Virus record (IMG/VR): IMGVR_UViG_3300030372_001471
Span: 1 to 27,346 of that record
Source: a virus
Lineage: Duplodnaviria > Caudoviricetes
Direction: 5' to 3' (one strand)
Length of the DNA stretch: 27,346 nucleotides
Positions 3,714-27,346 of the stretch are shown in pieces; within the stretch, counting starts at the first letter, position 1, and the number at the start of each line of letters is the position of its first letter. The translations under genes and the position numbers were made by a program. The notes beneath the pieces were generated by a model that searched no databases, was not told the origin of the DNA, and was given only the letters and a program-made list of their open reading frames with translations.

Positions 3714-3914
3714 TTATTTATTTATTAATTCTGTTAAACTTAGATTAAGTATACTACATAATCTTTTAGCATCTCTTATCTTTAACGATCCAGGATCATT
3801 AAGATACTTTAGCATTGTTGGGTATGAACAATCCATAATATCAGATAAGTCTTTTTTACTTAACTGATTCTTGAACATAGCATACTCAATAGCTGTTTTA
3901 AATTCTTGTATCAT
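3714..3914 (-). CDS. Cro/C1-type HTH transcriptional regulator
   Basis: LSKKDLSDIMDCSYPTMLKYLNDP...LCSILNLSLTEL. ATG at 3914 is preferred over GTG at 3938, which lies in the promoter. Confidence 0.8.
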   Translation of the reverse strand: MIQEFKTAIEYAMFKNQLSKKDLSDIMDCSYPTMLKYLNDPGSLKIRDAKRLCSILNLSLTELINK

Positions 3915-3937
3915 AATTTTTAATTTAAAATAATACA

Positions 3938-3967
3938 CAATAATAATAAATCTTTTTTAATACACAA
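3938..3967 (-). promoter_or_regulatory. Bacteroidota-type promoter (leftward early operon)
   Basis: TTG (3967-3965), 19 bp, TATTATTG (3945-3938); one mismatch to TTG-N19-TAnnTTTG. Confidence 0.55.
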
Positions 3968-4078: not shown

Positions 4079-4291
4079 ATGACAAAATTATATTTAGAAC
4101 CAGGTGAAAAAACAACATTAGAATTTTCACTTATAGAATCAAAAGTAAATACAGAAGAACGTATTGAGTATTATAATGATAAACTTAACGGATCAAGTAA
4201 TACTGAAGATGTGAAAATATATACTGAATTACTAAAGGGTGCAAAGAATAAACTACAATCAATTACTAACCTATTAAATAAATTATTATGA
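4079..4291 (+). CDS. hypothetical early protein
   Basis: 70 aa; first gene after the promoter. Confidence 0.75.
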   Translation: MTKLYLEPGEKTTLEFSLIESKVNTEERIEYYNDKLNGSSNTEDVKIYTELLKGAKNKLQSITNLLNKLL

Positions 4292-4434
4292 GAACAGTAC
4301 AATTAGATACAGCAGACCTATCAACTAAAGAAGGTCGTATTAAATACCTTAACTATAAGAATAGTAAAGAATGGATATTATTAACCGACTGCATGGGTAC
4401 AGAAGCGGTCTTTGAAAAGATTATAAATGAATAA
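4288..4434 (+). CDS. small hypothetical protein (48 aa, not in ORF track)
   Basis: MRTVQLDTADLSTKEGRIKYLNYKNSKEWILLTDCMGTEAVFEKIINE; ATGA overlap upstream and 8-nt overlap downstream, filling the gap exactly. Confidence 0.75.
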   Translation: MRTVQLDTADLSTKEGRIKYLNYKNSKEWILLTDCMGTEAVFEKIINE

Positions 4435-4681
4435 GACATATAATATATTATGTAAAAGTTATGGCAAAATAACTATAGATAACTATTACTTTACAGGTAT
4501 TGAAACTACAGATATTAAAATCAGTAAAGAGCTTATCACTTTTAAAGGAACAGATAAACAGTTACAAAAGTTTCTTGATAAAGTTATTAAGAATGAAAGG
4601 TTTTTTAAAGTGATAGGAATACATGAACACAATGAAGAAGAAGAAGAATATTATAAAAAATTATTAACTAAAAAATTATGA
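4427..4681 (+). CDS. hypothetical early protein
   Basis: 84 aa, coupled to its neighbours. Confidence 0.7.
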   Translation: MNKTYNILCKSYGKITIDNYYFTGIETTDIKISKELITFKGTDKQLQKFLDKVIKNERFFKVIGIHEHNEEEEEYYKKLLTKKL

Positions 4682-4938
4682 AACATTATAAAATAAAAAA
4701 GCTAGTTAATGGTTACAGGGTTTCACCATTGCTAAAGACTAGAATCCTAGTAGCACTACCATATATAAACACATCAGAAAGCATCAGCGTGGTGTGTGGC
4801 AACGAAACAATGATTGTCAATAGAGAAACACCACTATTGCACCAAGAGTCGTTTAAAGACAAGTTTGGCAGAAATAGGAATTATACTTTGTATTATTATG
4901 AATGGTGTCCGAATGAAAATCAACAAAGGTTATTTTAG
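4678..4938 (+). CDS. hypothetical early protein
   Basis: 86 aa; ATGA overlap; ends QQRLF. Confidence 0.75.
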   Translation: MKHYKIKKLVNGYRVSPLLKTRILVALPYINTSESISVVCGNETMIVNRETPLLHQESFKDKFGRNRNYTLYYYEWCPNENQQRLF

Positions 4939-5876: not shown

Positions 5877-6257
5877 TTATTTCTTTTTAAATTTTTCAAA
5901 CGAACGCCCACCAAAGTAAGCTCCAATCACCGTTATTAAAACCAACTGCAATAAATCTATCCAATTATCTTTGACTTCAAAATCAATCATACCCGCCTCA
6001 ATAAAGATTAATATAATTGTTGATATAACTAAAAACGCAAGAGTTAAAGGTCTTATATTTGCAGGAAGCCATCCCGCTTTTGCGTCTGATTCCCATCTTC
6101 TAGTTATCTGTTCTTCAGCGTTTGCCTTAGCATCTAAAATCATTTGCTTAAACTTAATCTTTAATTCTTTTCGTTCAGCATCAGTTGTTACAACATTATC
6201 AACAAGTTTATTAACATCAAGATTAAGGTTTCCGAATAAGTTTTTTAAAAAGTTCAT
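5877..6257 (-). CDS. Holin, GTA-type '3TM' holin family
   Basis: RWESD...WLPANIRPLTL, hydrophobic segments, GAYFGGRSFEK with a basic tail; adjacent to the endolysin. Confidence 0.8.
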   Translation of the reverse strand: MNFLKNLFGNLNLDVNKLVDNVVTTDAERKELKIKFKQMILDAKANAEEQITRRWESDAKAGWLPANIRPLTLAFLVISTIILIFIEAGMIDFEVKDNWIDLLQLVLITVIGAYFGGRSFEKFKKK

Positions 6258-6751
6258 ATGCTATTATAGTTAGTTACAGTTCTGTATTTTGTTTTATTAT
6301 TTATGTCTTTATAAGCCACAAGCTCTTGACATCTATTGTCATTTATAGTATAGCTTAAATGAACCCAAGCGGGGTTTTCAGGATCAACATATTCTGTTGC
6401 ATCCCCGAACTCTAAAATCACCTGATCAAAAGGCAAAGCTAATTCTTTTAGTGCCTGGTATATTTTTATATTATCCATTTTGCCACGTTTAAAGTATTGT
6501 AAATCTACTGCTTCATATCTACAATGTTGAGAACGTGAACTTGATCCAATGGCTTCTGACAAAACAAAAGACCTGTAGCCACTCGTAACCCTCAAAGCCC
6601 CAAGACTATCACGTAGGGGTTGGAGAATTTGAGTAGCTAATAAGGTCAGTTTATATATACCTTCCTTAGAAGGTTCGTTATCTATGCCTAAACGTAAAGC
6701 CGTATTACTTCTTGTAAGTTCCTTTAATGTAAAGTTCTTAGATAAACGCAT
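6254..6751 (-). CDS. Peptidase M15 family endolysin
   Basis: LSKNFTLKELTRS..A.R.GIDN.P; SGYRS; SQH....AVD; WVH zinc ligands. Confidence 0.9.
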   Translation of the reverse strand: MRLSKNFTLKELTRSNTALRLGIDNEPSKEGIYKLTLLATQILQPLRDSLGALRVTSGYRSFVLSEAIGSSSRSQHCRYEAVDLQYFKRGKMDNIKIYQALKELALPFDQVILEFGDATEYVDPENPAWVHLSYTINDNRCQELVAYKDINNKTKYRTVTNYNSI

Positions 6752-7092
6752 TATTCAAATTTTGCTAGATATATTTTGTCTATTTCTTTTTGAATCTCTT
6801 TTCTAGTAGCTTCTAATTGCATCATTATATTAGCTTCAAATCTTATAACTTCTTCACCTTCATCAAATATAATAATTGTAGGTACAGACTTAATCTTGTG
6901 TTCTTCTTTCATCTCAGGTTGTTCACAAATAACAACATTTGATTTCTTACATTCTTTAAGCTCTGATATATCAAAACTGTTATCATCATTCCAACTGCTA
7001 TTAAATTGCATAACAGATACTTGACTAAAAGCAACACCATAGCAAAAAAATAAAAAACCCATTAACACTAATAATATATTGCTGATATTCAT
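6751..7092 (-). CDS. Exported thioredoxin-fold protein lacking CxxC
   Basis: Signal peptide ending AFS|Q; VMQFNSSWN replaces FxAxWCxxC; IKSVPTIIIFDEGEEVIRF is the cis-Pro motif. Confidence 0.75.
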   Translation of the reverse strand: MNISNILLVLMGFLFFCYGVAFSQVSVMQFNSSWNDDNSFDISELKECKKSNVVICEQPEMKEEHKIKSVPTIIIFDEGEEVIRFEANIMMQLEATRKEIQKEIDKIYLAKFE

Positions 7093-7370
7093 TATTTTAA
7101 TTTGTATAAACGTTCATCCATTATATCTAACTTGTTTTCAATAGCATCAAGTTTCTTGCTGTTACCCATAATTGTAGTACGTACTAGTTCATCTTTTAAT
7201 TCATACTCAGTAGCACTTACCCAGTTGCCCTTTTCTAGTGCTTTTTTATTAGCATCTATATCAGCTTTTAAAGTAAAGTAAGTGCCTGAAACAGAAGCAA
7301 CTAAAGTTACTATAATTCCAATAGTCTTTAAATCTAAAGTAAATTGTGACTTTTCATTTACTACACTCAT
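7092..7370 (-). CDS. Single-TM membrane protein with C-terminal coiled coil
   Basis: TIGIIVTLVASVSGTYFTL followed by heptads (LDAIENKLDIMDERLYKL). Confidence 0.75.
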   Translation of the reverse strand: MSVVNEKSQFTLDLKTIGIIVTLVASVSGTYFTLKADIDANKKALEKGNWVSATEYELKDELVRTTIMGNSKKLDAIENKLDIMDERLYKLK

Positions 7371-7558
7371 TTGTTACAACTTTTTCTGTCTGCAATTCCT
7401 TGACTAACTATTAAAGCGATAACAACCCAAATTAGATTTGCCATTTCCCCCTCACTAATACCAACAGATGATCCGCAGGTTATAATGATTAAGGTTGCAA
7501 AAGCATACCAAAATTTCTTTGATGTTAAAATTGATTTGATTGTATTTAAAATTTCCAT
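7367..7558 (-). CDS. Small 2-TM holin-like membrane protein
   Basis: 63 aa; SKKFWYAFATLIII...LIWVVIALIVSQGIAD. Confidence 0.65.
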   Translation of the reverse strand: MEILNTIKSILTSKKFWYAFATLIIITCGSSVGISEGEMANLIWVVIALIVSQGIADRKSCNK

Positions 7559-7559
7559 A

Positions 7560-8582
7560 TTATATAATTATTAAATTAATTCCTAAATTGATTGTGTAAT
7601 TTTCTCTATTAAAATATCTCAAGTATTCTAATTGAGTGTATAACGATAATGTCTTAGTTAATTTGTAATTAGTTGTTAAACCAAAATCATAGTCGTTTGT
7701 TTCTGATCCATATTCAGTTAGTTTATGATTAACAAAGAAATAGTTACCATAAGCTAATATAAAAAAATTGTCCTGATATATGTAATAAGATAAACCAACA
7801 ACACCAGAAAGCGTGTATTGGTTTCCTAGTTCTGCTAGTTTGTTTCTGTTATAATTTGTAGGTATTGTAGAATAATATTGTTGAAATTGTGCCGTATTGT
7901 CTGCAACTATATTTCCGTTTAAAGTCCATCTATAAAATGATTGCTCTAACCTATCTAAATAACCATTATTATTTACATCCATATACCAAAATTCTTTTTG
8001 ATAACCTAGACTTTGAGCAACAGCTTCAAAATCATTATAATTAGGAAAATCGTTTTTAAAGGGATTTAAGCCATAGATAGGGTGATACCTACCGACAGCA
8101 CCAAACGTTGCTCTTATGCCATTAAAATCATGTTTTAGGCGTAAGTCTAAGGATTTGTACTGTAGGTCTATGTAACCATTGTTAGATGACTCTATTTTTG
8201 TGCTAATATGCTCACCAATATATCTAAACCAAATTTTGTGATTATCATACTCCCTGCTAAATTGTTTTACTCTTTCATATTGCAATAAGTATTCAAACCT
8301 ATCTACAGGTGATCTTTTTAGACTAGCGTTTTTTTCTGTTCCATCATAATAGAACTTAGGTTTTTTCTCATATTTAAAACGACTAAGTTTCTTTATTCCT
8401 ATAAAGTACCTGTAATTAGATTCATCAGTATTTGTTGTTTCTATTAGCTGTCCATTATTATATGAATAAGTTTCTATTGGTTGTATTGTAGAATTAACAG
8501 AACCACCCAGATAAATAGTAGAGTATTTATAGAACTGACCAAAAGACAGTAAAGGCAACAATAATAATAACAATCTAATCAT
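7560..8582 (-). CDS. Putative outer-membrane beta-barrel protein with an EF-hand-like loop
   Basis: Signal peptide MIRLLLLLLPLLSFG|Q; about 12 amphipathic aromatic-rich strands ending YTINLGINLIII; loop DVNNNGYLDRLE. Confidence 0.65.
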   Translation of the reverse strand: MIRLLLLLLPLLSFGQFYKYSTIYLGGSVNSTIQPIETYSYNNGQLIETTNTDESNYRYFIGIKKLSRFKYEKKPKFYYDGTEKNASLKRSPVDRFEYLLQYERVKQFSREYDNHKIWFRYIGEHISTKIESSNNGYIDLQYKSLDLRLKHDFNGIRATFGAVGRYHPIYGLNPFKNDFPNYNDFEAVAQSLGYQKEFWYMDVNNNGYLDRLEQSFYRWTLNGNIVADNTAQFQQYYSTIPTNYNRNKLAELGNQYTLSGVVGLSYYIYQDNFFILAYGNYFFVNHKLTEYGSETNDYDFGLTTNYKLTKTLSLYTQLEYLRYFNRENYTINLGINLIII

Positions 8583-9118
8583 TAGCCAAGTTTTATTACG
8601 TGATATGTAATATATACATCTGCTGAAAAACTACCTGTAAAATTAGCACTTGCATACATTCTTAAAGGTACATTATCAATAGTAGTACCTGCAGGACTAT
8701 TAGAAGCAACCAGATAATATGTTATATTAGTTCCTATATTACGCATATATCTATCTTCTTTATTCCAATAGTATGTGGTCTGTGAAGTATCATAACCAAT
8801 CAATAAATTGATTACACTTGATTCTGTTGAGCTGTGAGTATTAACAATGGTACAGCTTAAAGGCACTATTGCAAAACCTGAACCCTGTGCTGATACTAAA
8901 TCTTTAAAAGTACCTGCACCACCTGTCGCGTCCATAGCTTGAAATTCTGCTGTTGATACAGAAATTTTATCTGTTTGAATTAAGAATTTAGAATCTAGTT
9001 TTTTAGATGTTCCTGCACTACTACCTGTAGTGTCGCTTACATCTACAACCATATATAAATCGCCACTTCCGGTGTGGTTATTTAACGCTGATTTGTCCGT
9101 TAGTCTTTGTCCTGCCAT
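8582..9118 (-). CDS. Virion structural protein (fibre/decoration-like)
   Basis: N-terminal RLTD..AL....GDLYMVVD......GTSKK adaptor-like motif; S/T/G-rich beta-type C-terminus. Confidence 0.6.
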   Translation of the reverse strand: MAGQRLTDKSALNNHTGSGDLYMVVDVSDTTGSSAGTSKKLDSKFLIQTDKISVSTAEFQAMDATGGAGTFKDLVSAQGSGFAIVPLSCTIVNTHSSTESSVINLLIGYDTSQTTYYWNKEDRYMRNIGTNITYYLVASNSPAGTTIDNVPLRMYASANFTGSFSADVYITYHVIKLG

Positions 9119-9200
9119 TTTTATTTATTTTTTTAATATAATTTTTTAGCTTTTTAAAGTTCTCCAAACTACTAGGATAAATTCTTTTTTTAACATCCAT
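9078..9200 (-). CDS. small basic protein (40 aa, not in ORF track)
   Basis: MDVKKRIYPSSLENFKKLKNYIKKINKNGRTKTNGQISVK bridges the 9119-9189 gap. Confidence 0.5.
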   Translation of the reverse strand: MDVKKRIYPSSLENFKKLKNYIKKINKNGRTKTNGQISVK

Positions 9201-9771
9201 ATATAGTAATGTCTGCACCCTGTAAAAAACTTTTTAATCTATTGCTTCTAGGTACGTTAATATCTAAGTTCATTCCTGCATAGTAATTTCTAGTTGTCGG
9301 ATCAAGGTCTGCACCTGTATTTGTACTATACTCAGGAAAAGAGCTTGTATTATTTCTAATATAGTCAATTAAACGCTGTCTGTAAAATTCACCTGCATCT
9401 TTTGACCTGTCAATCAAAGGCTTAATATCTTCATAAGAAGCACTGTCTGATTGATCTGTAGCACCCATAATTACTATTGCATTATTTACAAATCTAAGTC
9501 TTAGGAATGGTGCTAATTCTTGAAAAGCAAATTGTACTAAAGCAGGTTGTATATAAGTTTCAACTAAGGTTTTATAAGCACCTGTTAAAGAACCACCTTG
9601 TATATCTGCTTTTAGTTTATTATCTAAATCAGTACCCAATACAGGAAGTATAAACATATCTTGTGCCAATAGTATATAAGGCATAATAATATTGTCATCT
9701 ACAGAACCGCCTAAAGCTGTATCTTTTTTTATTCTTGTTGCTGAAATATATAATGTATGTTGTATTGCCAT
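9190..9771 (-). CDS. Putative head-tail adaptor/connector
   Basis: Helical 193-aa protein directly after the portal; AQD..I.PVLGTDL...IQPALV...F.EY pattern. Confidence 0.6.
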   Translation of the reverse strand: MAIQHTLYISATRIKKDTALGGSVDDNIIMPYILLAQDMFILPVLGTDLDNKLKADIQGGSLTGAYKTLVETYIQPALVQFAFQELAPFLRLRFVNNAIVIMGATDQSDSASYEDIKPLIDRSKDAGEFYRQRLIDYIRNNTSSFPEYSTNTGADLDPTTRNYYAGMNLDINVPRSNRLKSFLQGADITIYGC

Positions 9772-9780
9772 ATCGTTATT

Positions 9781-11937
9781 TTATTTTACTCCTGGATAGT
9801 GTCCTTCATTAGGCATATTTACAGGTGCTATTACTGCGTCTTTTATTCCTCTTGGTGTTGGTGTATACGTTTTAGGTATACTATTTACTTTATTATAATC
9901 ATCTAAACCTTGACCATCTTTTAATTCTGTTCCTTCTTTTAATCTATATAAGATTACTTTCCAAGCGTGTCTACAATATACACCGCCTTTAAATTTAAAG
10001 AGGTCATAAGCACGTCCTTTGTGTCCTAGTTGTTTATTAACTCCTTCTCTACTAGCTTTATCTATATCTTCAATCCTATATACAAAACCTGCTTTAGATA
10101 AAGTCATCATATTTTTACAAAACTCTCTTGTTGACTTATTTGGTTTTCTACTCTTTTTAATATATTTAAATCTTACTCTGTAGTATGATTTATCTAAATA
10201 ACTAAAAGAATCTTCTTTGCTTACTATTTCATCTGCAAAGTTTTCTTTATCTAGCTTTTCAATTAAAGCATCCGCCCAATCTTCATAATCTTCAATAAGT
10301 CCTTCATCTTGTTCATCAACTACTTCCCATTTATCTAAGTCTATTTGCTCACCTTTTAAAGCTTCAAATACATCATTAAATTCATCATCAGATAAATCAG
10401 CTCTGACGCCTTCTATTTCTTTAACTTTCTTTTTTGCCCAAGATTGACCTGCATCACCACCCCATAACGCCCAAGCTATACGCCCTGCACTAGGGAATCC
10501 ATCTTCACCTGGTTTAAAACCCTCTGCTTTTTTATCTACTTCATGTCTAGCAAAAAAACTGTTCATTCTACTAATAGTATCTAGTGATAAATCACCATTA
10601 ATTATAGACCTTGCTCTAGCAACTGCAATCTGTGTGCCACCACGTCCATACTCTTTACGCCATTCTAAACCCTTTTTAGCTTCTTCAATCATACCTTGTG
10701 TAGGTGAAGTGTCAATATCTTTTAAGTCTTTAAATTCTTTTTTTTTTAAAGATTCTTCATTTATATCTTCTTTTGTAACGCCTTCTTTTTCTTGATCTTC
10801 TTCAGATTGTGTTTTTGTAACTTCTAAATCAATGAAATCAGCAGGCTTAAGGGTTTTAAAGTATAAGTCAAGGTTTATATTGTTAACTGCAAATATCTTA
10901 TCTAAGCCTTTTAAAAGTATGTTCTGAAAAGGAATAATAACAGTATTATTAAATAAGCTGTAAGCATCTCTTAATTCATCTGCATTGTTACCTAAACCAC
11001 CACCTTCTGCACGTATTCCAAATAGAATCGGTGATGTTACACGATGCCCTGCCAGGATTTGTGAAACGGCTTGTTTAGACATACCCTCCCAAGCAGACTG
11101 TGCGTCATTCATTTGTATAGGTTCTATAATAGGTTGTGTTTCTTTACCATCATTAAAGGTTATAAGTATTTTACCTGCGTTGCCACTACCTGAAAACTTT
11201 TGATTTAATTGTCTTTCTATAGTACGTCTTTCTTCTTCTGTTGGTACGCCGTTAGAGAATCCAACGTGCATACTAGGTGTCATTCCTGAAGTTATATTAG
11301 ATAAATGAAACTGAGCTATCTCTAATTCCATTTGAATCCAATCAGTCGCAGCTACATAATCAGGTGCAAAGCCATAAAATAAAGCAGGGTTTTTATCTCT
11401 AATCATTAAGATTTGACTAGCTTGTGTTCTGTCTTTAGTATTAAACGCTTTATATGCTCTAGGTCTATATTCTCCTTTTTTGCTTTTTGACCAATCAGCA
11501 GAGTAGTAATAGTTCTCTACTTCACCATCAATCATTTTACCTGAACGTATATATTGTGCAGGTATATGTATTATCTTAGCTATGCGACTACGATCACGAC
11601 TCCATATTACGTTTACATAACACCCACCGAATAGCTTTAAATCCATTGCAAGGTCTTTTAAGACATCTTCACCTGAATTGTGTAGTAATTCATTTAAACG
11701 TAAAAAAGATTCTTTAGTGTCTGTATTATCATCAACATTAGTTGCACTTAAACCTTCACCATAAATCATAGCACCTATTGACTTAATTAAAGCACCATTG
11801 ATAGCACTTCCTAAGAATAAGTCTAGTAAATAGTTTGGATATAAATTATCTTCACCAAAACTAACCCAGTCATGTCTTGGATCTTCTACTAAGTGAGGTA
11901 TGTTATAATGTGATAATTTTATTAAATCTAAATTCAT
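9781..11937 (-). CDS. Portal protein with two fused C-terminal domains (AWALWGG domain and MuF-like domain)
   Basis: About aa 1-370 are portal-like (FGEDNLYPNYL; DLKLFGG; GSGNAGK; ILAGHRVTSPILFGI). An acidic linker follows, then GRGGT...RMNSFFARH...AWALWGG, then REFC...KGGVYCRHAW. Confidence 0.85.
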   Translation of the reverse strand: MNLDLIKLSHYNIPHLVEDPRHDWVSFGEDNLYPNYLLDLFLGSAINGALIKSIGAMIYGEGLSATNVDDNTDTKESFLRLNELLHNSGEDVLKDLAMDLKLFGGCYVNVIWSRDRSRIAKIIHIPAQYIRSGKMIDGEVENYYYSADWSKSKKGEYRPRAYKAFNTKDRTQASQILMIRDKNPALFYGFAPDYVAATDWIQMELEIAQFHLSNITSGMTPSMHVGFSNGVPTEEERRTIERQLNQKFSGSGNAGKILITFNDGKETQPIIEPIQMNDAQSAWEGMSKQAVSQILAGHRVTSPILFGIRAEGGGLGNNADELRDAYSLFNNTVIIPFQNILLKGLDKIFAVNNINLDLYFKTLKPADFIDLEVTKTQSEEDQEKEGVTKEDINEESLKKKEFKDLKDIDTSPTQGMIEEAKKGLEWRKEYGRGGTQIAVARARSIINGDLSLDTISRMNSFFARHEVDKKAEGFKPGEDGFPSAGRIAWALWGGDAGQSWAKKKVKEIEGVRADLSDDEFNDVFEALKGEQIDLDKWEVVDEQDEGLIEDYEDWADALIEKLDKENFADEIVSKEDSFSYLDKSYYRVRFKYIKKSRKPNKSTREFCKNMMTLSKAGFVYRIEDIDKASREGVNKQLGHKGRAYDLFKFKGGVYCRHAWKVILYRLKEGTELKDGQGLDDYNKVNSIPKTYTPTPRGIKDAVIAPVNMPNEGHYPGVK

Positions 11938-13498: not shown

Positions 13499-14482
13499 TT
13501 AAGTCCAAACAGATGTAGCAAATACTCCATCAGTTCCAACTGCAGTTTGTACACCCATTGCAAAGTTCATAACAATTCTTACATTGTCAGAGCCATCATA
13601 TTGATATGTAGGTATTACTCTTGCCTCAGTCCAATCTGTAGCTAGGTTAGTTCCCACTACAAGGTTTTCAGGATATGTAGCAACGATTGTATCGTTAAAC
13701 ATTCCAGGACAAACGTATATTGGGAATCCCATGTAAGTTAAAGAATTAAAATCACCTGCAGCACCCAAAGATTGAAATGTAGTAGCAGAAGATAATTTTT
13801 GTGCATATAAAGCATAAGTTTTGTGATTCATATAGAATCCGAAACCTGGCTTAGATAAAATTCCTTGTACTGAAGCAACCACTTTATCATATACTGCAGC
13901 TAAATCATCTAATATATCAGCTGTAGTAATAGCACCATCTAAATCAACTTCGTGAAAGTCTTTCATTGCAGAAGCATCTGCACCTGTTTCATCTAAAGAA
14001 CCATCATCAGATTGAAAACCAACACCAAAAGGTGATGATCCTTTCCAAATCATATTTTCTATATGAGCACCTGCTTTTGCAGCAACAGTAGACAATAAAA
14101 AGTCCTCAAATGATCCTGGTAAGTTACCATTTCTGTCCATGTTTTCACCAATCCATGTAGGGAATACTGTACCCCTACAAACTTCTTGATTTACTTTCAT
14201 GTCAGCCAAAGTAAGCACTTGCTCAGTTAAAGCTAAATTTGCAGGAGCATCAGTTGTAGAAAAACTACAAGCTGCAGCCTGAACAGGATCTGAAATTCCT
14301 AAATTAGAAATTACCGCTTTACTATTTAAACCGTCTATTTGTCTTACATACCCTTTTGCAATTGTGTCTGGAGACTTAACTGCAGCAGTCACATAAGGCA
14401 ATGCTAATTTACCTGCATAGGTGTTATCAGTTACGGTTATATTGAACTGATAATCTTTACTTAAATTATAATTTTTCGCCAT
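13499..14482 (-). CDS. Major capsid protein (HK97-fold by inference)
   Basis: 327 aa after the protease and scaffold; YAG...YVTAA, IENMIWKG, YMGFPIYVCPGM, DGSDNVRIVMNFAMG. Confidence 0.85.
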   Translation of the reverse strand: MAKNYNLSKDYQFNITVTDNTYAGKLALPYVTAAVKSPDTIAKGYVRQIDGLNSKAVISNLGISDPVQAAACSFSTTDAPANLALTEQVLTLADMKVNQEVCRGTVFPTWIGENMDRNGNLPGSFEDFLLSTVAAKAGAHIENMIWKGSSPFGVGFQSDDGSLDETGADASAMKDFHEVDLDGAITTADILDDLAAVYDKVVASVQGILSKPGFGFYMNHKTYALYAQKLSSATTFQSLGAAGDFNSLTYMGFPIYVCPGMFNDTIVATYPENLVVGTNLATDWTEARVIPTYQYDGSDNVRIVMNFAMGVQTAVGTDGVFATSVWT

Positions 14483-26441: not shown

Positions 26442-27346
26442 TTAATTGCTTTTTGTCCTGTAAACTGTTCCCATCTTTCTATAATTACATCACAATACTT
26501 TGTATCTAATTCCATACCATAACATATTCTATTTGTTTTTTCACAAGCTATTAATGTTGAACCACTACCAAGAAACAAATCAGCTACTATATCTGCTTTA
26601 TGATTTTTAATTGCTCTAACACATAATTCTATTGGTTTTTGTGTTGGATGTAATTTATTAATGCCCTCTTTATCAATTTCCCATACTCTATTTTCTGTTG
26701 TACTACCTATAAAATTAGTTCTTGTGCCTTTTGGTTTCCATATTAAACAAGGCTCGTGGTTTTGTTTATAAGAAGCCCCTAATGCCCCATATCCCCCTTT
26801 CTTCTTCCATATAATCAAGGCTACTATTTCCCCTTTTACATCTTCAACACCTCTATATAGTCCAAACGGAACAGTGTCAGCATAAAACATAAAAACAACT
26901 CCATTTGAAAATTTATTAGCAATTGCAACTGCTTGATAATATAAATCCAAATCATCATTTTTAATTCCTTGTCTGTTGTTTTGTTCTAATCCGTTTTCTC
27001 CGTCTTTTAAGCCACCTGTGTAATTTACACCATAAGGGGGATCTGTAAATACCATATCTGCTTTATCTCCATTCATTAGTTTAGCAACATCACTTTCTTT
27101 TGTGCTATCTCCACACATTAATCTGTGTTTTCCAAGTTGCCAAACATCACCAAGTTTAACTCTGCTTTCTTTTACTTCTGGTATGTGGTCATCCTCTGTG
27201 TTGCCTTCTGTGATTTTATCTATATTAATATCTAAGTCAATATGCTTAAAACCCCAATCAGTAAGTTCATCAATATCAAATTCATTAGCCAGAATATCCA
27301 TATCAAAATCACCTGTATTTTTATTTAGTCTTATATTTAATTCTCT
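26429..27346 (-). CDS. N4/N6 DNA methyltransferase (beta class), C-terminal part of the ParB-MTase fusion
   Basis: GDVWQLGKHRLMCGDS, motif IV TDPPY, HPTQKP, motif I DLFLGSGST, GMELD; the frame is open to the window end and continues at 64-303. Confidence 0.93.
   Translation of the reverse strand, partial: RELNIRLNKNTGDFDMDILANEFDIDELTDWGFKHIDLDINIDKITEGNTEDDHIPEVKESRVKLGDVWQLGKHRLMCGDSTKESDVAKLMNGDKADMVFTDPPYGVNYTGGLKDGENGLEQNNRQGIKNDDLDLYYQAVAIANKFSNGVVFMFYADTVPFGLYRGVEDVKGEIVALIIWKKKGGYGALGASYKQNHEPCLIWKPKGTRTNFIGSTTENRVWEIDKEGINKLHPTQKPIELCVRAIKNHKADIVADLFLGSGSTLIACEKTNRICYGMELDTKYCDVIIERWEQFTGQKAIKCGV
27284..27346 (+). repeat. 63-bp direct terminal repeat, right copy
   Basis: Identical to 1-63. 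Confidence 0.97.

Follow-up and report, generated by a model that had tools for sequence, protein, structure and literature searches.

A module of three genes, designated A, C, and D, was identified in the window, i.e. the whole stretch of 27,346 bases that was analyzed (IMG/VR record IMGVR_UViG_3300030372_001471). The module consists of three genes and not of four; it is inherited in full or not at all and encodes a predicted outer-membrane β-barrel (A), a predicted inner-membrane protein (C), and a predicted periplasmic protein with a thioredoxin fold (D). It appears to be new by composition and by inheritance; its function is predicted and may be exerted at the outer membrane late in infection.

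Genome and gene arrangement

The genome is circular-complete, bases 1–63 recurring at positions 27284–27346 as a 63-nt terminal repeat. Profile matches to Pfam and PHROG identified genes encoding a terminase, a portal, a protease, an endolysin, and a holin; an integrase was not found among the 37 proteins scanned with Pfam, and scans for promoters and terminators gave a signal no better than chance. The closest cultured relative is Nonlabens phage P12024S/L, with 25% identity over a virion protein of 327 aa (13499–14482), which is likely the major capsid protein. This relationship, the Gln residue following the signal peptides, and type IX secretion system (T9SS) tails encoded by relatives together point to a host belonging to the Bacteroidota. 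The labels siphophage and podo-like used below for related phages are deduced from gene content. The portal gene (9781–11937, minus strand, 718 aa) contains an inserted domain (phrog_2859) at residues 404–508, and portal length ranges from about 566 to 811 aa across relatives. Four short opposite-strand genes (4079–4938, plus strand) beside a Cro/C1-type HTH gene (3714–3938) have no family match.

As described in the initial annotation, four tightly packed genes lie directly before the M15 endolysin and holin genes, all on the minus strand and abutting or overlapping by 1–4 bases (Table 1).

Table 1. Features of the module region
Feature	Position	Strand	Description
A	7560..8582	-	340 aa, predicted 12-stranded outer-membrane β-barrel, signal peptide; module core
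B	7367..7558	-	63 aa, 2-TM protein, probable holin family; optional insert
C	7092..7370	-	92 aa, single N-terminal TM and helical/coiled-coil tail; module core
D	6751..7092	-	113 aa, exported thioredoxin fold without CxxC; module core
M15 endolysin	6254..6751	-	Pfam Peptidase_M15_3, E 1.9e-12; start overlaps D stop codon
Holin	5877..6257	-	phrog_3427, E 4.3e-22
Cationic ORF	9078..9218	-	46 aa, +10, amphipathic; upstream of module; not module-specific

Protein A

An AlphaFold model of A (pLDDT 79, pTM 0.73) contains 12 long strands, residues 68–93 being of low confidence; hydrophobic and polar residues alternate in most strands, the weak one being 110–122. The best structural match was EstA (Z 15.6, rmsd 4.4, 209 aligned), followed by NalP (Z 14.7), KdgM (Z 14.6), and NanC (Z 13.8), all of them 12-stranded outer-membrane barrels, and Foldseek returned outer-membrane barrels only. 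The initial annotation had proposed a signal peptide followed by about 12 strands and had named a non-barrel model as evidence against the module; the predicted fold is a barrel. T9SS barrels such as PorV and PorP were not among the high-ranking matches of A, one translocon chain appearing at rank 49 with Z 7.8; kinship with them may still exist.

Signal peptides and TM segments, here and below, were called from hydropathy, the conserved Gln after the signal, and structure models; mature A likely starts at Gln16. If both ends lie in the periplasm, strand parity would place loop 66–95 on the periplasmic side and an 87-aa domain (168–254) carrying a DxNxNG loop on the outside. Among 27 diverse members, conservation amounted to 0.50 for the periplasmic loop, 0.52 for the strands, and 0.42 for the outer domain, and the charged strand residues K65, E97, R120, K129, R148, and R165 are invariant or nearly so. 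An invariant His was not found in these 27 members, which argues against an OMPLA/LpxR-type site; sites of this type use a catalytic His.

Pfam, PHROGs, and NCBIfam contain no family matching A or C at useful scores. A profile search with A yielded 185 proteins at E ≤0.001 among 1.84 billion; of 1,324 candidates, 85 were recognized as relatives, and Pfam domains were absent from all of these. Neither A nor D had a match in 50,697 GenBank phage records. Searching 185,579 bacterial and archaeal genomes with one peptide pattern revealed A at four loci, all in phage-like context inside metagenome-assembled genomes (MAGs), and the only hit among 401 genomes of one phylum was the same contig as one of these four. 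The A family is phage-restricted. The MAGs with module-bearing phage contigs (L209–L212) are named Sphingobacteriales, Parvibaculum, Nitrosopelagicus, and Rickettsiales; since these contigs are probably mis-binned, the names are not evidence for the host.

In 30 of 180 distinct A proteins the signal ends in a lipobox-like Ser/Ala-Cys followed by a short basic stretch, Cys-Cys, and Gln. The same start was seen in A, in one cargo protein, and in one D (L075:8001–9044, L077:3870–7223, L210:2915–3253); either the barrel bears a lipid anchor, or the module genes have exchanged a signal peptide. A genome of 245 kb (G002; L293, L294) contains A twice, at a distance of about 119 kb, representing a duplication or an assembly repeat.

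Proteins C and D

Protein C comprises one N-terminal hydrophobic segment and a heptad-rich helical/coiled-coil tail of about 58 aa without Cys, and is predicted to be a type II inner-membrane protein. The i-spanin topology assigned to it earlier agrees with this layout as far as sequence can tell, i-spanins being class II proteins with a helical layout according to the accessible part of PMC6139136. A match to an Rz-like PHROG was obtained for 1 of 69 C members and was weak (E 0.011). None of the 69 C proteins has a Cys within the last 55 residues, so that the periplasmic Cys characteristic of spanins is lacking. A comparison of C with the 75-aa TM-coil protein of L266 reached a probability of only 21%.

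The thioredoxin fold of D is indicated by a structural match (Z 12.1, rmsd 1.8, 83 aligned) and by a profile match to a thioredoxin (E 2e-8). Its active-site region reads N-x-x-[WF]-N-x-x-N, with three invariant Asn residues where the redox motif would be; CxxC occurs in 0 of 69 aligned members, and the cis-Pro position is kept (Pro71 in 69/69). The exported non-redox thioredoxin fold suggested by the initial annotation is thus well matched. Gln follows the signal in 68 of 69 members, and for D, signal cleavage and a soluble state in the periplasm are predicted. Two other roles for D were considered. A lipoprotein o-spanin was rejected, since Cys is missing ahead of the mature Gln in 29 of 69 members, Cys17 occurs in 9 of 69, and a lipobox is not conserved; an inhibitor of one particular endolysin is unlikely, since D is found with three endolysin families.

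Inheritance of the module

Loci were picked with the head-tail adaptor, which is independent of the module, and those 46 of 80 which reach an endolysin were counted. All three genes were present in 25 loci, none in 21, and only part of them in 0; these and the following counts overstate independent events, since the loci are redundant and related. In a quick tree containing one false adaptor hit (L071) and long branches, most module-less loci fall into one clade, the others being L227/L229 and L266. Of 33 loci inspected in the close clade, 14 were set aside because their flanks were short or a gene was cut; A, C, and D occurred together in 19/19 informative loci. Among the best 80 of 153 loci picked with distant A proteins, 29 were dropped and C and D were present in 50 of the remaining 51. 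The best 80 of 578 loci picked with D contained A and C in 29/29 siphophage and 26/26 other loci, after 10 and 15, respectively, had been dropped. In three loci seemingly devoid of A the gene was found just beyond the flank; two fragmentary records, L151 (19% complete) and L202 (58% complete), contain C and D without A.

Furthermore, A, C, and D stay clustered despite gene shuffles in siphophages, podo-like phages, and jumbo phages. The co-occurrence across unrelated phages expected from the initial annotation is therefore strict for these three genes. An estimated 1,100 stretches of ocean phage contigs match D patterns, indicating that the module is common.

Protein B and the holin slot

Matches of B to PHROG holins were weak (E 0.0014; relatives E 0.00095 and 0.0023). 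Of 21 module-less relatives, 16 have B in the holin slot, immediately behind the endolysin gene. Among 62 distinct module-bearing siphophage loci, the position of B is taken by B in 41 and by another 2-TM family in 13, and is empty in 8. B is probably a holin-family gene with a putative hole-forming role, and it is an optional insert; its earlier assignment to the module was abandoned.

Exported proteins encoded beside the module

In distant phages, i.e. podo-like and jumbo phages, a gene (T) encoding a signal-peptide protein of 600–1,400 aa with Cys-rich repeats, here called cargo, accompanies the trio in 48/51 and 24/26 loci, in the orders ACDT, CDTA, and TACD. When 86 cargo tails picked with a profile built by us were classed by hand, the T9SS type A C-terminal sorting domain TIGR04183 was found above cut-off in 55 and below it in 10, and 21 gave no match; the tail type without a match aligns to the matching type at 84% probability.

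Siphophage relatives encode an exported Cys-rich protein of 156–255 aa right after A in 33 of 62 loci (order ATCD). Its tail, which we take to resemble short T9SS tails, matched TIGR04183 in 0 of 4 cases, reached 3.6% in hhalign, and had 0 hits in 61 genomes, a search run without a positive control; cellular proteins sharing this tail (best 120 of 399) comprised only unannotated proteins of 88–303 aa. Small exported Cys-rich proteins inside the module at L138:4301–4981 and L247:3700–4182 have a repeat stalk of variable length and an N-terminal motif that is, in our opinion, reminiscent of LDL-receptor class A repeats. Neither the large cargo gene nor the small exported Cys-rich gene was found in the 27,346-base genome, and among 62 distinct siphophage loci, 29 retain the trio although cargo is absent.

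Position of the module relative to lysis genes

D abuts the endolysin gene in 19/19 and 29/29 informative siphophage loci, even where the endolysin belongs to a different family (L259, L261); this adjacency goes back essentially to a single inherited arrangement. In the podo-like genome L167, a siphophage-type A-C-D-endolysin-holin block without cargo is present, and in a close relative nested in the module clade of the quick tree (L227) the whole block is swapped for another lysis cassette. In distant loci, the endolysin gene abuts the trio in 0 of 50, is located within 1.5 kb in 4 and beyond in 34, and was not seen in 12. With the cargo gene counted as part of the block, an endolysin gene is found within 300 bp in 11/50 and a tail-type gene in 20/50. 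Three endolysin profiles detected an endolysin in 1 of 26 non-siphophage loci picked with D, and in the three complete module-bearing genomes, trio and endolysin gene are separated by about 2.7 kb (with the cargo gene in between), 10 kb, and 23 kb. The fixed place in a lysis cassette postulated in the initial annotation holds for the siphophage clade and not for distant phages, in which an abutting endolysin gene is absent and T9SS cargo is the usual neighbor.

Spanins and other outer-membrane lysis genes

Previously, no convincing lipobox-bearing o-spanin or u-spanin had been seen in this genome, and a six-frame scan of the complete sequence gave the same result. Considering all starts, no annotated gene has a lipobox; seven matches to loose or strict lipobox patterns represent six short opposite-strand ORFs and the Cys in the first TM of B. 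An ORF combining an N-terminal lipobox with a C-terminal TM, as in unimolecular spanins, was not found in the genome. An adjacent i-spanin/o-spanin pair was detected by lipobox and hydropathy scan neither here nor in 3/3 complete module-bearing podo-like genomes; canonical spanins beside the module, named earlier as a sign against its proposed role, are thus absent from all three. Three module-less genomes (92–100% complete) also contain neither D nor a spanin pair, one of them encoding an isolated 67-aa protein with a weak lipobox. Since module-less sisters lack spanins as well, the module is dispensable and has displaced no spanin, and the proposal that the barrel and the thioredoxin-fold protein replace an o-spanin is not supported. 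A TM-coiled-coil gene and a 63-aa lipoprotein gene of L046 were rejected as a spanin pair, being about 5 kb apart and without a spanin family match.

The cationic ORF upstream of the module has a helical moment of 0.72 (p 0.025 vs 2000 shuffles) and is possibly a disruptin-like peptide. Of 140 redundant loci, 139 have a basic ORF at this position, right after the head-tail adaptor gene, and module-less relatives show a smaller amphipathic moment for it. Module-less siphophages (L277:8643–8920 and relatives) carry a gene for a 1-TM protein of 50–60 aa and a cationic ORF of 38–46 aa before the endolysin gene, and no spanin. The 1-TM family occurs in 0 of 210 module loci; the cationic ORF was found in 19 of 21 module-less loci, and its profile matches 1 of 210 module loci. 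These two genes are a possible alternative, second set of lysis helpers. Additionally, P12024S gp12 (L290:8556–9194), a protein of 212 aa with one N-terminal TM, is encoded just before the endolysin; its layout presumably recalls T4 holin T.

Discussion

Proteins A, C, and D are predicted to occupy three envelope compartments, they are inherited all-or-none, and their genes stay together through shuffling; most simply, they would form one complex. Our first, tentative choice is that A, C, and D constitute a barrel-anchored bridge across the envelope which helps to breach the outer membrane at lysis. A would be put into the outer membrane by the BAM machine of the host, and D would bind A at its conserved periplasmic loop and C at its coiled coil. 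Once holin and endolysin have acted, such a bridge would pull both membranes together or open the outer membrane, the barrel being the outer anchor, a role played by a lipid in spanins. We rank this explanation first because outer-membrane lysis is a general need for which no known gene exists in these genomes, and because the module is found in the lysis slot and is relocated together with it. The siphophage adjacency of D and endolysin, the block carried by L167, and the block swapped in L227 all agree with it, as do module-less sisters which fill the same slot with other small proteins (the 1-TM family and the cationic ORF) and siphophages which keep the trio in the absence of cargo. The loose link to endolysin in distant phages argues against a bridge of this kind, as do the module-less sisters, which lack spanins too; furthermore, a bridge leaves the optional exported cargo gene unexplained, membrane fusion would not require the 87-aa surface domain of A, periplasmic Cys residues are missing from C and a conserved lipobox from D, and the cationic ORF alone could perform the outer-membrane step.

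The cargo is better explained if the outer domain of the barrel, together with T9SS cargo where present, masks, mimics, or blocks a phage receptor, either for superinfection exclusion or for guarding progeny from receptor-bearing debris, with D and C holding or assembling the barrel. We regard this as rather doubtful. Cargo accompanies the trio in nearly all distant loci and in four gene orders, most of its tails carry the sorting domain, and a second, small exported family lies inside the siphophage module; distances of A also correlate best with those of cargo (Spearman 0.75–0.87), a value confounded by linkage. The T9SS and its adhesins are suspected flavophage receptors in the accessible text of PMC9804748, and phage T9SS cargo, known by itself from Cryophage, is proposed for exclusion in the accessible part of that report (Bellas et al. 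2020, PMC7468147). However, the 27,346-base phage keeps the trio without any cargo, an inner-membrane protein that a pure surface decoy would not need is always retained, and a T9SS signal in the tail of the small siphophage protein is putative.

It is unlikely, but would cover the links to both surface cargo and holins, that the trio times lysis: A would sense incoming virions or a cargo-bound ligand at the surface and relay this via D to C, which would restrain a holin, in functional parallel to T4 lysis inhibition. Lysis inhibition in T4 involves holin T and the periplasmic antiholin RI, a small cleaved protein, and D is predicted to be cleaved, soluble, and periplasmic as well. In siphophages, the module encloses a second holin-type gene at 54 of 62 loci, holin-type genes lie within 300 bp of the block in 8/50 and 5/26 distant loci, and the periplasmic loop of A is as conserved as its strands. 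Signal, contact, and holin partner are hypothetical, though, the holin gene can be as far as about 30 kb away (G413, G415), and the trio persists with different holin families. In its general form, marine Bacteroidota phages of 27 to 245 kb would possess a trans-envelope signalling chain of their own which sets the time of lysis by outside cues, leading from a receptor barrel, often with a T9SS-displayed surface protein, via a redox-dead thioredoxin relay to an inner-membrane helix; we consider this improbable. Least probable of all is an island of separately acting envelope genes whose cohesion is due to linkage and late expression. Contacts between A, C, and D are putative, siphophage A distances correlate poorly with those of C (0.22) and D (0.26), values again confounded by linkage, and the fragmentary records L151 and L202 have C and D without A; all-or-none presence and clustering kept through four gene orders in unrelated phage types are difficult to reconcile with such an island. 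On balance, we retain the barrel-anchored bridge as the tentative choice.

Be its role at the outer membrane breaching, shielding, or sensing, the module appears to be novel. If it acts in lysis, many uncultured marine phages may use it as a hitherto undescribed means to open the outer membrane late in infection; the open question of spanin-less outer-membrane lysis is narrowed to three genes within 1.8 kb. The literature covered, which did not include subscription papers and supplements, contained no description of an A-C-D module and no phage system known to combine a barrel with a periplasmic adaptor and an anchor in the inner membrane, in agreement with the initial annotation, which knew of no characterized system of such composition.

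Among known barrels, A belongs to the same class as EstA, NalP, KdgM, NanC, and LpxR (Z 12.8–15.6), but shares only 6–11% identity with them, lacks a passenger domain, and has a large insert between strands 7 and 8. T4 lysis inhibition involves a small cleaved periplasmic protein in a lytic phage near lysis functions, as predicted for D; however, no link to the module in sequence or fold was found, and to our knowledge T4 uses no phage-encoded barrel for this purpose.

According to the accessible part of 10.1101/515445, about 15% of phages of Gram-negative hosts have no spanin gene. Extra lysis factors known from such accessible text are Lcc6 (10.1101/2024.01.23.576932) and disruptin (10.1101/515445), both peptides of <70 aa. 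Disruptin gp28 of phiKT likewise serves the outer-membrane lysis step in a phage without spanins, but it is described there as a single cationic peptide of 56 aa (10.1101/515445), which the ORF at 9078–9218 resembles in charge and amphipathicity and A, C, and D do not. Beside the module, related phages encode a protein that has a signal peptide and ends in a T9SS type A tail, as does Cryophage; in contrast, the accessible text on Cryophage mentions no barrel, anchor, or thioredoxin partner (PMC7468147), and the 27,346-base genome has no cargo. For Bacteroidetes phages, only unimolecular spanins are reported in the accessible part of a recent survey (PMC12596118). The two-component spanins such as lambda Rz/Rz1, as far as described in the accessible text of Kongari et al. 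(2018, PMC6139136), likewise comprise a helical inner-membrane protein of class II and, after it, a small exported protein; like them, the module is located next to holin and endolysin genes in siphophages, in a genome without another spanin. Unlike in spanins, D has a thioredoxin fold and is no lipoprotein, C is devoid of Cys, a 12-stranded barrel is obligatory, and the link to endolysin is loose in podo-like phages. Judged by the lipoprotein and cysteine features of Kongari et al., the module is not a spanin, but it may work like one.
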